Positions 30,001 to 39,000 of a stretch of DNA of 64,000 nucleotides are shown here, one piece after another. Where the stretch lies: the NCBI GenBank assembly GCA_031422435.1, contig JANPLU010000107.1, positions 50,622 to 114,621 of the forward strand, read 5' to 3'. The position numbers are program-made. Position 1 is the first letter of the stretch. The number at the start of each line of letters is the position of its first letter. Source of the stretch: Acaryochloridaceae cyanobacterium VAR_48_metabat_390. Lineage in GTDB: Bacteria; Cyanobacteriota; Cyanobacteriia; Thermosynechococcales; Thermosynechococcaceae.

Positions 30001-33000
30001 GATAGGGGCGTAGGACGGCTTGGCGCTCTTGCTCAAAGGCCAGCTCAGATTTGACCTGCGCTAAGTCAACGGCTAACTTCCGTGAGACGGTTTGGACGAG
30101 TTCTGGGAACTGGTGGGCGATCGCCCCAAACTCTGCCTTGGGCATAAACCAAAACTGACAGTCTGTGAGCGCTACCACGGTTTCTTGGGTAGGCTGCTCT
30201 AGCAATAGTTCGGTGAGGTGCAGTACAGCACCTGGCAGCAAACTACTCGCCCAAGCGGGGCCGCTCGGGTTGGTACGATAGCGCTCTAAGTGCCCTCGCC
30301 CCAGAATGTATAGCCCATCGGGAAGAGTGTCTTCTAAAACCAGTCGTCGGTTAGCGAAAAATTCTTGATACTGAAATTGAGGAAGCATCGCCTCTAAAGC
30401 AGCATCGGGCAGGTTCCCTAAAGCTGAGCGCTCTTTAAGCCAGATTAAGGTGAGCGTGGGAGTAGACATACTGTTCTCCTAAGATTTAGGGTTCATCCCA
30501 CTCAACGCCATCAATTTTTTCTTCCAGCGCTAGAGGTACAGAAATCTCAACCTCCGGCGTTCCCTCTAAATTTACGATCGCCCCATTAAAAAACTGGGCA
30601 AAATCTTTGGTGGCATGGGTTAAGGCATCAAAGGTTTCCCACACAGGTGAAGCTGTTGCTGAAGGCGCTTCGACGGTCGGGGGCTGAGTCGTAACGGCTC
30701 GAGGTGGCGGCGGCTCAGGGGCAGGTCGAGGAGGTGCAACCGAAACAGCTTGCGCGACCGCCTGTCGCGGAGGATTCACTGGCTCTGGAAAATACTGTGA
30801 GGGAGGGGGAGTAGGGGCAGGCACATGATTGACGGGAGCAGCGGCAGGCGGCTCCGCTTCCGTCATGATTTGGATGCTTACCCCGACCTTGCGGTTAAAC
30901 ACCTTCAAGAAAGCAGCCTCAACATCCGGTATCTTGCTGTGCAGCACGCGGGCTAAAGAGCCATTGCGAATCCCAATTTGTGCCTCTCGCCCCCGAAAGG
31001 CAATGAGCTGACCGTGCTGACTCAAGAGCGCCCGAGACGGTCGATGGAGATGCTCTAGTAGCTGATGCCAGAGCTGATCTAAATTGAGTTCGGATGCCTC
31101 TACAGGTGGCGGCGGCGTTGGCGTCGCATAAGCGGCAGGTGTTGAAGCAGCCACTTTTGGGGCAGCCTCCGGTAGTGTGCTAGTCGGCTGTGGTGGTGCA
31201 ATGGGTGCAGGCATTTCAGAAACAGCAATATCACTCGGCCAAAACTCGTCATTATTTGTTGTGGCAGGTGGGGCGGCGATCGCCTCCCTTACAGAACTGA
31301 CACCCACCGCAGCCGTAGGCGGCGCACCATTGACCGGAAATGCTGGCGGCATCACATTTGCTGGGGGCATCTGCGGCAGTATTGCCGCCACAGGCTGAAA
31401 CCCCGATGGAGGTGCAAAGTTTGGTGCTGTAACCTGAGGTGCAGTAAAGGGAATTAGCCCCAGTAAGGTGACTTCTAGCCAAAGGCGTGGCTGAGTGGTG
31501 TTTTTAATCTGAATTTCGCAGGTGCGCAGATGCTGCTGCCCAGCCAAAATTGTGTTGAGGTCAACGGCCTGGGCAAACCGACAGAGTGCATCCCAGGTAG
31601 CTTCTGTGAGCGCTACTAAGTCTCGGCGTTTGGGCGCGGTTTTGGCAATGAGTAAATCTCGATAAAATCCCGTCAGATTTTGCAGAACGGTCAAGGGTTC
31701 TCGACCCCGATCCAGTAGATGCCGCGTCCGGTCAAGGATCGTTTCTGGGTTGGCGGTGGCGATCGCCTCTGCCAGTGCCAACAGATCCTGTTCTGGCACT
31801 GAACCCACCAAGTCCCAAACGCGATCAATGGTAATTTCCCCTGCTAGCAGGCTGAGCTGATCGAGCAGACTTTCGGCATCTCGCAGGCCACCTTGAGAAA
31901 TTTGGGCAACGAGTTCTACGGCGGTGGGGGCGATCGCAATGTTTTCTTGCTGGGCAATGTAGATTAAGTGATCCACCATTGGCTGGAGCGGAATCCGGCG
32001 AAAGTCAAACCGCTGACAGCGCGAAATAATGGTGGGCAGCACCCGCTGTGGGTCGGTGGTCGCCAGAATAAACACCACGCGGTCGGGCGGCTCTTCTAGG
32101 GTTTTGAGCAGCGCATTAAAGGCTGCCGTGCTGAGCATGTGAACTTCATCTAAGCAGTAAATTTTGTAGCGGCACTGGACGGGGGCAAACTGGGCACGCT
32201 CAATCAGCTCCCGAATGTTGTCTACCCCCGTATTGCTGGCGGCGTCAATTTCAATAACGTCTAGGGCGTTGCCCCTAGTGATGGACTGACAAACCTCACA
32301 AACCCCACAGGGTTCTGGCGTAGGGACATCCGTGCTGATGCAGTTAAGAGATTTTGCTAAAATTCGAGCGCTAGACGTTTTACCCGTGCCCCGTGGCCCT
32401 GTAAGGAGGTAGGCAGGCGCAATCCGGCGCAGGCGCATGGCGTTGCTGAGGGTGGTAGTAATGGCATCCTGTCCCACCAAATCTGCAAAGGTTTGGGGAC
32501 GGTACTTATGGTGAAGGGGTTCGTAACTCACCGGCGGGCTGCTCAAAAAGGCGTCTCTAATGTCATCATCGCATCACCGTCTGCTGATGCAGGATTAAAG
32601 ATGATGATAACGTTTTGCTTCGCTTCGCTGAATACCGTAGATAGACTGGCGCAGGATAGCGTCTTGAACCGTTGAGGTTATTGCACCGCAAGCGCTCTTT
32701 CATTAGCAGGATTGAAATTAGTGGGAGGTCAAAATCAGAAAACTTTTGGGCAAAGGCTCAAGAAGTATAAGTTAACTTATGCAAAATATTGCGAAAAACC
32801 AGCAGCTTTAGATTTACTGGGTCTCAATATTGTGCTGTAAAAAGCCAAGCTATCCATAGCAATAAACTTTATTATTTTTTATTCATAGATAAATTTTTCT
32901 GGCACGATATACACTAACAACTGTAATTAACATCATAATATTCAGCACGTCCATCATAATAAACTGAGGGGATGGAAATGACTATCTCAGATGCAGAGAC

Positions 33001-36000: not shown

Positions 36001-39000
36001 CCAAGACCTCACCAAAGCCGGAGAATTTATCTTGGGCTATCTCAATGAGGATGGCAACTATCCTTCTACCCCAACCGTTCCCACCTCTCAAGATCATACC
36101 CACGTCCTACCGCTGCTGCCCGAAACGGCGCTTAAAGACTTTGGACGCAACGGCAGCTACTTTGTCTTTCGCAAAATCGCCCAAGATGTGGCAGGCTTCC
36201 GGCGATATTTTCAGGAATCATTCAGCACTCCTGAAGAACGCACCCTTATGATGTCTAAGGTGGTGGGGCGGTGGCCTTCCGGTGCCCCGTTGGTGCAGGC
36301 ACCAGAGGCAGATCCTTTGGGCGATCGCCTCCCCAATAACGACTTCTTAGCAAACCATAACGACTTCACTTACCGCACCGAAGACCCCCAAGGCTTCCGC
36401 TGCCCGTTTAGTAGCCACATTCGCCGCACCAATCCACGAGATTCTTTAGGGCAAGATGCCGACGAATCAATCAAAAGTTCACGGCGGCGACGGCTATTGC
36501 GCCGAGGCGCTGTCTATGGCGACCCGCTCCCCCAAGGCATTACAGAAGATGATGGACAGGCTAGAGGACTGCTGTTTTTTTGCATCAATGCCAATATCCG
36601 GCGACAGTTTGAGTTTGTGCAGCAAAGCTGGGTGAACGCCCCCACCTTTAATGGCCTGTACGATGAGCGTGACCCGCTAGTAGGCTATAACCCTGACAAC
36701 TTACCGCGCACAATGGTGATTCCTCAAGTGCCCCTCAGCCGAAGCCTTAGCCTGCCTAACTTTGTCACCCTCAAAGGCGGAGCCTATTTTTTCTTGCCTA
36801 GCCTTTCAGCACTAAACTTTCTGGCGGCAGTATCGGTTCCGGCTCAGCGCTGAAGCCATCCCAGGCGGACTCTTGGTGCGCAGCTATCGCCCCTAACGTC
36901 ACCAAAGAAGACTTTTGCGCGTCTGTCAGCCCCGTTACGCCCTCAATATTCATTTGGTCGTAGGGTCTGTCTTCTTGAAAAGTTTGAACACATTGCCCAG
37001 TGGCAACATTCCAACGCTTAATGGTTCCTTCTTGGGCGGCACTAAACAGTTCTAGCGTCTGCGGATGAAACGCTACCGACCAAACCTCTCGCTCATGACC
37101 TGTAAGGGTTTGGGTGCAGTTGCCATCTGGGATAGACCAAAGCCTAACGATTGCGTCATTACTACCGCTGGCGATCGCATCTCCCTTGGGGCTAAACACC
37201 ACAGACCACACCGAACCCGAATGCCCTTCTAGGGTTTTCAGACAGTCACCAGACGCAACATCCCAAAGCCGAATTGTTTTATCATCGCTGCCGCTCACCA
37301 ATAGGGTTCCGTCTGGGCTAAAGCTGGCGCTAAAAATTAGGCTGGTGTGCCCTGTCAACACACGCAGACAGGTGCTAGAGGCGACATCCCATAGGCTGAC
37401 GAGGCGTTCTCCATGTCCACAGGCGAGGGTTTTGCCATCGGGGCTAAAGGTGACAGTCCACACCCGTCCACCCTGGGGCAAAATGCCGAGGCATTCCCCT
37501 GATTGGACATCCCATAGCCGCACGGTGGTATCGTCGCTGGCACTGGCAAGGGTGCGTCCATCGGGGCTAAAGTCTACTGCAAACACAAGACTGAGGTGGC
37601 CTTGAAGGGTTTTAATCGGTTTCCAGGTAGAGGTTTGCCAAAGTTTAATGGTGTTGTCGTTGCTGCTGCTGGCTAAAAGCTGCTGATTGGGGCTAAACAC
37701 AACGCTCCAAATCCAGCTCGAATGGGCTTCTACCGATCGCAGACATTCGCCAGAGCTTAAAGACCACTGGTTGATTTTTTTGTTATCGCCACTGCTGATG
37801 AGACATTGCCCATCGGGGCTAAAGGCGAGAGATTTAATGCCTGTGCTGTAGCCCTTTAAGGTTCGCAGAGACTGTCCGGTTTGAGGGTTCCAGAGCTTCA
37901 CGGTGCTGTCGTTGCTACCGCTCACCAATAGAGTTCCGCTGGGGTGAAAGGCCACAGACCACACCCCATTGGGGTGGCCTTTGAGGGTTTTGACACATTG
38001 ACCAGAGGTAATATTCCACAGGCGAATGGTGCAGTCTTGGCTCCCTGTTGCTAAAAGGGGTAAAGCCGCTTCGCTAGCGTCTTCATTCGCAAGAGCAGGG
38101 GCAAACGCAACGCAGACGACGGGCTGAAGGTGGCCTTTGAGCGATCGCAGACATTCCCCTGTCTCTACCTGCCAAATATCTACGGTGCAGTCAATGCCAC
38201 CCGTTGCTAAAAATGCGCCGTCAGGGCTAAAGGCAAGGGAACGCACGCGATTAATGCGCCCTTGCAGCAGTTCTATGGCGGTGCCTGTCGCAAGGCTCCA
38301 CAGCCGAATGGTTTTATCGGCGGAGCTGCTGGCAATGGTTTTGCCATCGGGGCTGTAGGCCAAAGACCACACCGTACTTTCGTGGCCTTTGAGGGTAGTG
38401 AGACACTGGCTGCTGGCAATATCCCACACCTTTACCCTATGGTCATCGGCACCGCTCACAAGGGTTGCCCCGTCAGGGCTAAAGGCGATCGCCCACACCC
38501 ACCCCTCATGACCAGAAAGGGTTTTGAGGCACTGCCCTGTTGCCAAATTCCAGAGCTTCACAGTTTTATCAAAACTGCCGCTGGCAAGGGTTTGACCGTC
38601 GGGGCTAAAGGCTACGGCGCAAACCCAGTTGCTGTGCCCTTCACAGGTCAACACCTCTTTATAGCCCTCTACCTGCCAAACGCGCACCTTATCGTCCGCG
38701 CTGCCCATGGCAAAGCGCTTTCCGTCGGGGCTAAAGGCCACAGAAAGCGTCGCGCTTAAGACCGCTGTAAACGAAGACCGAGACAAATCGGCATGGGCAA
38801 AGTTGACGTGGGAGAGATTGGCATCCACCAGGTATGCCTGCCAAATTGCCAGATAAGAGCAGTCTAGACCGCTAAAGTTCGCTCCCAGCTCCCGCAGCAG
38901 ATTAAGGAGATTGCCCCCCACATAGCCCGCTTGCAGCGGCGCATCTGCTCTGGTTTTTGCCAAAAGGTCTTTTAGACACTGCTCAATACGAGGTTTGCTC

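Follow-up and report, generated by a model that had tools for sequence, protein, structure and literature searches.

HF, a ferredoxin-fold family that accompanies a branch of class-V DyP peroxidases, may form with them a two-subunit fatty-acid dioxygenase

An important outcome of this analysis is that a protein family which we call HF is the near-obligate gene partner of one subfamily of DyP peroxidases, and that the two proteins are predicted to bind each other. In our best explanation, to which we give about even credence, HF would be the substrate-binding subunit and the class-V DyP the heme part of a two-subunit fatty-acid dioxygenase that feeds a hydroperoxide-converting enzyme. A bolder version, which we hold more tentatively, is that the pair constitutes an independently evolved class of fatty-acid dioxygenase besides lipoxygenases, COX/DOX and the di-heme FadCcp, with the heme and the hydrogen-abstracting tyrosyl radical on separate subunits linked via a surface Trp of DyP.

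The window, by which we mean the whole 64,000-nucleotide stretch of the Acaryochloridaceae cyanobacterium VAR_48_metabat_390 that was analysed, carries a 789-aa fusion ORF (32972-35341, + strand), followed 39 bp downstream by a DyP ORF of 490 aa (35381-36853, +). The genome-wide survey's note had placed the start of the fusion at 32978, which turns out to be the second Met of a reading frame that begins at 32972; the fusion itself and the DyP gene behind it stand as described. Based on profile matches and kept residues, the N-terminal part is a catalase-fold heme domain (32972..34039, +), while the C-terminal 416 aa (residues 374-789; 34091..35341, +) are the HF domain (P0001), in which the structure model and fold matches point to two ABM/ferredoxin-fold repeats and a helical linker. 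Neither the fusion nor the DyP matches PF03098 (An_peroxidase) in Pfam, PF00305 (the lipoxygenase non-heme iron domain) is likewise unmatched by the window proteins, and the LOX-like gene of the host genome sits on a different contig. A promoter and terminator scan returned sites no commoner than in shuffles, and no RNA holder was listed.

Against Pfam and NCBIfam, HF gave nothing at E<=1 except one sub-cut-off Pfam match (E 0.13), in agreement with the earlier statement that no model covers it; in the ESM Atlas the whole domain matches only clusters without names and its C-repeat gives no usable named match. The search returned 319 relatives near full length, at least 572 genome loci (similar to the 345 and 586 reported before) and 2145 representatives at 50% identity, with one-domain and split forms besides the tandem one. 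A membrane-like linker is present in 74 of 121 tandem HFs. The HF of the window is without such a hydrophobic linker (1.38), which counts against the dioxygenase reading. A weak match of the helical linker to ERD4/OSCA in the profile search of PDB sequences (E 4e-4) was dismissed as low-complexity helix likeness. The domain contains two HFARW motifs (34229..34243, with His47 of P0001, and 34937..34951, with His283; both +), the His of the first being kept in 98% of 334 N-repeats, and that of the second in 99% of 389 C-repeats and, among 17 one-domain forms, in 82%. Tyr316, which belongs to a Trp313-x-x-Tyr316 element (35027..35038, +) on the helix of the C-repeat which the model turns towards DyP, is kept in 99% of the 389 C-repeats and in 17/17 one-domain forms.

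The structure model of HF has a mean pLDDT of 89.6 and reaches 90 or more at 293 of 416 residues, as one would expect from the survey's description, and WhiE-ORFI (9lmn) is again its best fold match (Foldseek E 1.7e-5; VIA Z 15.4, rmsd 4.2, 223 aligned). Abx(+)O (9ltx) also matches (Z 11.9, rmsd 5.1, 203 aligned). Both proteins are, like HF, intramolecular dimeric alpha+beta barrels, yet they share 10-13% identity with it and no sequence-level match, and HF lacks a polyketide context. With its two ferredoxin-like repeats and many ABM-type matches, the modelled HF fits the dimeric alpha+beta barrel (ABM-like) superfamily; a search of its profile against PDB sequences found no ABM-type sequence, and with no Pfam/NCBIfam model above cut-off it falls outside the named ABM-type families (ABM, SchA/CurD, chlorite dismutase, IsdG). 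Given that the best fold matches are aromatic-polyketide tailoring proteins, that DyPs oxidise phenols and that one locus (L294) has a tyrosinase nearby, HF could be dirigent-like, steering the coupling or cleavage of aromatic radicals that DyP makes from lignin-type or polyketide substrates. We consider this extremely improbable: the fold likeness comes at just 8-13% identity, and no recurrent polyketide or aromatic-catabolism family occurs among the neighbours of 80 loci. The fold neighbours also include cyclases, mutarotases, MupZ and cofactor-free oxygenases, and His283, Arg286, Asp310 and Tyr316 are conserved, which would suit a different scheme: DyP alone makes or activates the oxygenated lipid, and the bound HF, working as an acid-base enzyme without cofactor (epoxide hydrolase, cyclase or isomerase), acts on the unstable product with its His, Arg, Asp and Tyr. 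The lipid context described below fits this equally, and the fact that ABM-fold proteins are often acid-base enzymes counts against the dioxygenase reading. However, HF genes are absent from LOX and DOX operons that contain these P450 or catalase-fold partners, so HF tracks DyP and not the downstream step, and the model docks HF onto the helix of the radical Trp; we regard an acid-base HF as unlikely.

The gene partnership was assessed from both sides. Among the best 80 HF loci, DyP is present in 77, adjoining or fused, and the three loci without it (L005, L023, L034) each stop at a contig edge; in L001 and L051 further genes separate the two. DyP-first sampling gave an adjoining or fused HF at 21 of 24 loci in Pseudomonadota and 22 of 23 in Myxococcota, and HF-first sampling in Actinomycetota found DyP in 11/11. 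The unpublished genome G323 is counted solely in a separate tally of 11/301, and no other result depends on it. Long proteins (79) include 34 HF-DyP, 15 P450-HF-DyP, 16 DyP-P450 and 12 catalase-HF forms, giving 49 natural fusions with both HF and DyP, and HF-DyP-patatin fusions also occur, the patatin part being four weak Pfam matches. Additionally, distances among HFs correlate with distances among DyPs (Mantel r 0.756 over 142 pairs; maximum of 200 shuffles 0.07). Together with the tree and the complex discussed below, these data bear out the survey's claim of a near-obligate partner of one DyP subfamily. The literature that we searched (mostly non-subscription, main texts) yielded neither a DyP that has an ABM-fold subunit of its own nor any mention of the HF family or of a link between DyP and fatty-acid dioxygenases.

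The 490-aa protein is a DyP by TIGR01413 (100.9 bits; cut-off 100.5), with PF21105 and PF20628 also above cut-off; all 20 of its PDB matches are class-V-type DyPs (best 8RE2, E 2e-61), and judged by sequence it is a class V (C/D) member. The heme-site residues Asp186, His346 and Arg374 are intact and align to those of Auricularia DyP and DrDyP, while the distal GXXDG motif reads GFYDS, with Ser replacing the last Gly. The fungal/AnaPX-type class-V enzymes Auricularia DyP (4au9) and Alr1585 (5c2i) share the distal Asp/Arg, the proximal His and equivalents of Trp377 and Tyr337. Trp377 is a surface-radical residue of Auricularia DyP, according to the accessible part of PMC4357238. Its equivalent by alignment to 4au9, Trp417 (36629..36631, +), is invariant across 172 DyPs with and without HF; that these include the 20 without HF counts against the dioxygenase reading. 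In our FastTree trees, rooted by midpoint or a two-sequence outgroup, HF-linked DyPs cluster together, and the 20 DyPs without HF, a comparison set that is cyanobacterial only, form a separate clade (0.989) in which a GEFxLGY segment is mostly absent. A further difference is that these AnaPX-type DyPs often follow galactose-oxidase-like genes, found upstream at 13 of the 20 loci (5 Pfam-checked, the rest by likeness), with a GMC oxidoreductase in 1. HF could stand in for such oxidases, supplying DyP with H2O2 as an oxidase without cofactor, and ABM-fold proteins do include O2-using quinol and anthrone oxidases. Nevertheless, diffusible H2O2 requires no tight complex, and the lipid neighbours and the link of the P450 to dioxygenase families would be left unexplained, which makes this explanation very unlikely in our view.

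Binding of HF to DyP, as predicted in the survey, passes once more, with a complex score of 0.65 against 0.00 for the best control (the mark is reached by 116/157 solved and 2/215 mismatched pairs); runs share at least 77% of contacts and the partner pLDDT is at least 77. The model sets the HF helix bearing the invariant Tyr against the DyP helix of the surface-radical Trp, which makes Tyr316 a candidate radical residue. The predicted interface comprises HF residues 310-312, 314-315, 318-319 and 322-323 and DyP residues 412, 415-416 and 420-422, Trp313, Tyr316 and Trp417 themselves not being named; the absence of Trp417 and Tyr316 from the named confident contacts counts against the dioxygenase reading, as does covariation at shuffle level. 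Six of the top 40 HF-DyP column pairs fell within the predicted interface against 0.25 expected, but a reduced alphabet left 4 of the top 40, and the mean in clade-preserving shuffles was 4.3-4.5 (2 x 15); covariation was therefore excluded as support for the interface. One pair, HF 322 and DyP 224, reads D/Y in 73 cases and swapped Y/D in 3 (score 7.7, shuffle maximum 6.9), and is a lead only.

If HF and DyP do form a dioxygenase, trace peroxide would oxidise the DyP heme, which is established DyP chemistry, and the oxidising equivalent would shift to surface Trp417, as shown for the equivalent Trp of Auricularia DyP. It may then pass over the interface to Tyr316 of HF, whose tyrosyl radical would remove an allylic hydrogen of a fatty acid bound in the HF cleft, after which O2 would add. 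The likeness to COX/DOX is claimed in working mode only, the An_peroxidase fold being absent from the window pair. Gene context suggests that the hydroperoxide would be handed to a third enzyme, namely the fused catalase-fold domain here and a reductase-free P450 or caleosin elsewhere, and that patatin or thioesterase genes would provide the free fatty acid.

The catalase-fold domain of the fusion, which we take to be y4iL-like, has no Pfam match; its fused relatives match PF00199 weakly, and the family profile matches 3e4w (E 1e-12), catalases and coral AOS 1u5u (E 1.5e-4). H35, R76-F-S78, R340 and Y344 are invariant in 13/13 sequences, and the window domain keeps the distal His35 and proximal Arg340/Tyr344 on a short catalase fold, as in cAOS/cHPL-type enzymes, making it a likely fatty-acid hydroperoxide converter. 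Catalase-fold genes were again counted in 13 of the 80 loci, among them a LodA fusion 4.7 kb away; in 3 loci they are fused to HF. The survey had described the catalase-HF fusion for this genus; the fusion is real, and a limit to the genus is not shown, 12 unnamed proteins carrying it. Across 38 regions of the catalase-fold family, An_peroxidase is adjoining or fused in 12 and lipoxygenase adjoining in 1. Linkage to a LOX or heme dioxygenase gene is seen for the relatives L160 and L180-L193, and for none at the window locus or HF loci. Two HF-linked copies have the lipoxygenase-linked copy as their sister (support 0.893). Many catalase-fold genes stand alone, and 21 full-length copies have no dioxygenase neighbour, which counts against the dioxygenase reading.

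A new observation is that HF and DyP usually have either a P450 or a catalase-fold gene as the third gene beside them, and almost never the two together. P450 genes occur in 20 of the best 80 loci (both types in 1), and 21 further loci have P450 in 13, catalase-fold in 4 and both in 0. About 48 of the 80 have neither nearby, many being short contigs, and a myxobacterial and actinobacterial branch (20 loci) has a His-rich ThuA/GATase-fold third gene with no lipid link; both count against the dioxygenase reading, as does a RoxA-like gene that adjoins HF-DyP in L295. In ten loci from a P450-first search, the P450 gene adjoins An_peroxidase genes in 3, lipoxygenases in 2 and HF-DyP in 1; RoxA-like di-heme proteins lie near it in 2, and it stands alone in 2, these last again counting against that reading. 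Of 11 plasmid P450 matches, 5 were covered, namely 4 new loci and L088. Of the 7 P450s with lipoxygenase, An_peroxidase or RoxA-like neighbours (the latter two called dioxygenases from family likeness only), 6 fall in the clade that is sister to the HF-linked P450s, which speaks for HF-DyP filling a dioxygenase slot. Local profiles run on all ORFs found no LOX/DOX gene in L001-L098, L197-L198 and L289-L347 and matched elsewhere, and among the matches listed (30 long P450 and 34 long HF proteins) there was no fusion with LOX or An_peroxidase, which is weak evidence. The I-helix acid position of the P450 is Pro in 39/70, and a crude pattern scan of 37 loci found no credible ferredoxin within 4 kb. 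Pfam scanning of neighbours covered 58 picked ORFs, most from 427 listed, and 94/216 in another set. Lipid-related neighbours include patatin (adjacent in L025, L097), caleosin (fused in L043; also L055, L058), thioesterase (L011, L086, L097), oleate hydratase (L086) and 3-hydroxyacyl-CoA dehydrogenase (L085, L086, L089).

One member of the HF-linked DyP clade has a solved structure, namely DrDyP of Deinococcus radiodurans (DR_A0145; 8RE2/8RE3), whose operon runs 3-hydroxyacyl-CoA dehydrogenase, HF, DyP and catalase-fold gene (DR_A0146), and where HF differs in having one domain, neither tandem nor fused. The enzyme was studied without its HF neighbour, which goes unmentioned in the accessible part of PMC10820274, and alone it was inactive at pH 7.5, with heme-peroxidase activity at acid pH only. 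DR_A0146 had no catalase activity, as the available text of PMC6300522 has it. Both genes go up after UVC/vacuum stress (available portion of PMC5731708), which, together with the TetR regulators and beta-oxidation genes that flank several loci and the many catalase-fold genes standing alone, would suit detoxification: HF would bind stress-made lipid hydroperoxides or other hydrophobic peroxides and hand them over for removal by DyP, the P450 or the catalase-fold protein, with no oxygenation. We find this quite unlikely, as relatives of the partner P450 pair with hydroperoxide-making enzyme families, the fused patatin suggests a fresh fatty-acid supply, and no common reductant-supply gene was seen among the neighbours, a flavin disulphide reductase lying beside only some myxobacterial loci.

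The closest parallels to the proposed dioxygenase are the linoleate 10S-dioxygenase of Nostoc punctiforme with its catalase-related hydroperoxide lyase and the fungal DOX-P450 fusions, where a heme enzyme is paired or fused with a catalase-fold enzyme or self-sufficient P450 and where there is a membrane-binding segment and a peroxide-started Tyr radical has been proposed (accessible part of PMC13049297). The catalase-fold and P450 families of HF loci also adjoin An_peroxidase genes, as in those systems; in contrast to them, the first enzyme here would be a DyP (ferredoxin fold) instead of a peroxidase-cyclooxygenase fold, and the Tyr would, by the model, lie on a second subunit. Similarly, the Pseudomonas aeruginosa oleate diol synthase PA2077/PA2078 (FadCcp, RoxA-like di-heme) is a peroxidase scaffold turned fatty-acid dioxygenase, according to the available part of PMC4496055, and RoxA-like genes adjoin relatives of the HF-linked P450; unlike HF-DyP, these are single-chain enzymes of an unrelated fold with c-type hemes.

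Beyond the survey's note, our analysis adds one-domain and split HFs, the P450, patatin and caleosin partners, a Deinococcus member with a solved DyP, and the lipid-oxygenation context. A dioxygenase followed by a hydroperoxide converter is a type of pathway logic already known. The DrDyP authors, in the accessible part of PMC10820274, call the natural substrates of DyPs an open question and speculate on activation by another protein; a DyP branch almost never found without one family, HF, bears on that substrate question. If the dioxygenase reading is true, a large branch of class-V DyPs would gain a natural function, the HF family of more than 2000 sequence clusters would acquire one too, the surface radical of DyP would have a protein partner, and bacteria would own an unrecognised oxylipin route, with HF and DyP starting oxylipin pathways in many phyla.

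The system lies in two plus-strand open reading frames of the same direction, separated by 39 bp: a 789-aa fusion (32972-35341), which joins a catalase-fold domain to an unnamed C-terminal part of 416 aa, hereafter HF, and a class-V DyP peroxidase of 490 aa (35381-36853). HF contains two HFARW motifs and gave nothing above cut-off against Pfam and NCBIfam models. In the catalase-fold domain, labelled 'y4iL-like' here, distal His35 and proximal Arg340/Tyr344 are invariant in 13/13 aligned relatives, while the DyP, whose top PDB match is 8RE2, keeps Asp186, His346 and Arg374. The nearest named relatives among the matches listed are cyanobacteria of the Acaryochloris/Altericista group (79-92% identity). 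On the minus strand, a gene for a 1241-aa protein (36798-40523), by eye an NTPase with WD40 repeats, converges on the DyP gene with a 56-bp overlap; its conservation is limited to the three closest relatives. In a 92%-identical relative (L001:6057-7936), HF and DyP are separated by two inserted genes, one for a pentapeptide-repeat protein and one of 315 aa that by eye resembles an Rpn-type transposase.

HF belongs to a family with 319 near-length relatives and 2145 representatives at 50% identity, which also takes the form of one-domain proteins of 160-240 aa and of split N+C gene pairs. Its structure model (pLDDT 89.6) predicts two ferredoxin-like repeats, nearest to WhiE-ORFI 9lmn (Z 15.4, rmsd 4.2, 223 aligned) and also similar to other ABM-type barrels, with identity to the top ABM-type fold matches of at most 13%. 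A membrane-like linker occurs in 74 of 121 tandem members and is absent from the window's HF. In HF numbering, Tyr316 is kept in 99% of 389 C-repeats and in 17/17 one-domain forms, and His283/His47 in 98-99% of repeats.

The near-obligate partnership of HF with DyP claimed in the genome-wide survey's note was borne out: DyP was found in 77 of the best 80 HF loci (from at least 572), the three misses stopping at contig edges, and in 11/11 such loci from Actinomycetota. When loci were collected by DyP instead, HF was adjoining or fused in 22/23 from Myxococcota and 21/24 from Pseudomonadota (three by weak scores), where the three HF-less loci held lower-scoring DyPs; among cyanobacteria, just 3 of 23 class-V DyP loci had HF, namely the three top-scoring DyPs. 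HF-linked DyPs, which share a GEFxLGY segment, form one clade (0.998) separate from 20 cyanobacterial non-HF DyPs (0.989), with a single sequence (L198) outside both. Fusions among 79 fetched proteins of at least 560 aa comprised HF-DyP (34), P450-HF-DyP (15), DyP-P450 (16) and catalase-HF (12). Novosphingobium aromaticivorans encodes a triple fusion, SARO_RS19865. We regard HF as very probably a partner dedicated to this DyP clade. At six of the 80 loci (L026, L031, L049, L062, L065, L070), the direct neighbour of HF-DyP is an unnamed, roughly 200-aa membrane protein (e.g., L070:8281-8895) with conserved Glu/His motifs and no Pfam match.

The binding predicted earlier also passed a second time, with a complex score of 0.65 against 0.00 for the best of three controls, contact agreement between runs of at least 77% and partner pLDDT of at least 77. 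The score mark is reached by 116/157 solved and 2/215 mismatched pairs, counts that are only approximate for the alignments used here, heme included. The model supports HF-DyP binding; PDB searches found no comparable complex. The predicted interface involves DyP residues 412, 415-416 and 420-427, surrounding Trp417, and HF residues 310-323, surrounding Trp313 and Tyr316, with DyP 417, HF 313 and HF 316 themselves absent from the named contacts. In the alignment, Trp417 corresponds to Auricularia DyP Trp377, the catalytic surface radical (PMC4357238), and is invariant also among DyPs without HF. Sequence distances of HF and DyP correlate (r 0.756, 142 pairs), which indicates co-inheritance rather than contact, and their covariation gave no support over phylogeny.

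What the pair might do is suggested by the third gene. A specific P450 family occurs at 20 of the 80 best HF loci, the catalase-fold family at 13 and both at one; the corresponding figures for 21 loci from Pseudomonadota are 13 (two weak), four and none. Of 70 partner P450s, 69 keep the Cys but 39 have Pro in place of the I-helix acid residue, and a crude scan for ferredoxins up to 4 kb away gave no credible candidate in 37 loci. A GST-like protein is fused to or adjoins the partner P450 or DyP at nine loci (L022, L039, L040, L061, L068, L075, L079, L301, L310). In proteobacterial P450-HF-DyP loci (L081, L082, L084, L290, L291, L299), an adenylate-cyclase-like or SARP/TPR regulator often lies upstream and sometimes a Crp/Fnr gene downstream. 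One locus (L077) encodes, at most 4 kb from the P450, a small Cys-rich peptide with a leader, presumably similar to a lanthipeptide precursor.

Among ten loci collected by the P450, three adjoin An_peroxidase genes, two lipoxygenases (one weak, E 1.7e-7) and one HF-DyP, two lie near RoxA-like di-heme proteins and two stand alone. The 71 HF- or DyP-linked P450s cluster weakly (0.67), and their sister clade (1.0) includes 6/7 dioxygenase-linked P450s. The lipoxygenase, An_peroxidase and RoxA-like families each include known fatty-acid dioxygenases (PMC13049297, PMC4496055), and by family membership the copies beside the P450s are putative dioxygenases. The uncharacterised P450 family pairing with all three and with HF-DyP (L355-L364) is a candidate hydroperoxide-isomerase family, and the third gene of HF loci points to fatty-acid hydroperoxides.

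The catalase-fold family, present in 35/301 cyanobacterial genomes, gives the same picture less cleanly. Of 38 regions fetched, 12 adjoin or are fused to An_peroxidase, one adjoins a lipoxygenase and 21 are full-length copies alone; in the tree, two HF-linked copies are the sisters of the lipoxygenase-linked one (0.893). Local profiles found neither LOX nor DOX in L001-L098, L197-L198 and L289-L347, so HF-DyP occupies the position of the putative dioxygenase in the other operons; L295, with a RoxA-like gene in two pieces downstream of HF-DyP, is an exception. Elsewhere in the window's own genome (L219; G000:C90, about 48960-51770), a lipoxygenase-like gene of only 456 aa (PF00305 E 5e-13) is convergent with a 283-aa gene without Pfam match, whose start, judged by eye from a motif, looks similar to allene-oxide-synthase-type catalase folds. 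A gene 4.7 kb before HF (L068:2050-5022) joins a catalase-fold domain to a LodA-type amino-acid oxidase, and L182:4128-6961 has a vanadium-haloperoxidase-like gene (weak PAP2) with a broken catalase-fold gene downstream.

Further lipid-related links of HF are HF-DyP-patatin fusions (four Pfam matches, one above cut-off), a patatin gene immediately upstream in L025, caleosin fused to DyP in L043, adjoining in L058 and nearby in L055, as well as thioesterases, oleate hydratase and 3-hydroxyacyl-CoA dehydrogenase. Against a uniform reading stand some 48 loci among the best 80, with neither P450 nor catalase-fold partner, and 20 loci, mostly Myxococcota and a few Actinomycetota, where one-domain HF and DyP lie beside an unnamed, highly conserved His-rich protein of 338 aa (e.g., L321:5325-6338) with a ThuA/GATase fold (Z 14.5, rmsd 3.3, 209 aligned) and no lipid link. 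So too does the galactose-oxidase-like link: since class-V DyPs without HF frequently follow such genes (13/20), HF may possibly supply H2O2 to DyP. AnaPX-like cyanobacterial DyPs lie downstream of a secreted galactose/glyoxal-oxidase-like gene (L202-L204, L206-L211, L213-L215, L218), and upstream there is frequently also a gene for a xylose-isomerase-like TIM barrel, in what is likely an H2O2-supply operon. Unnamed 405-419-aa genes without Pfam match precede other DyPs (L194:2965-5440, followed by a broken catalase-fold gene, and L205:5833-8615), possibly a parallel DyP-partner system.

In Deinococcus radiodurans a divergent TetR gene and a 3-hydroxyacyl-CoA dehydrogenase gene come first, then one-domain HF, DyP and the catalase-fold gene DR_A0146; the DyP contains three motifs of the 8RE2 sequence. 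At pH 7.5 DrDyP is in a low-spin state and shows no activity, and its authors propose interaction with other proteins (PMC10820274); DR_A0146 is reported to be without catalase activity (PMC6300522), while another paper terms it a catalase weaker than KatE1 (PMC7143949); and UVC/vacuum stress raises DrDyP (DR_A0145) and DR_A0146 (PMC5731708). The passages of these studies that were covered do not mention the HF gene.

The literature searched, mostly outside subscription papers, held no description of the HF family or the HF-DyP system. We consider a role in fatty-acid oxidation probable at most HF-DyP loci. That HF and DyP together form a hydroperoxide-forming dioxygenase is an evenly balanced proposal, and a relay from Trp417 of DyP to Tyr316 of HF across the subunits is a more tentative addition to it. 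Under the dioxygenase proposal, HF-DyP would operate like a DOX cascade while standing outside the COX/DOX and LOX families.
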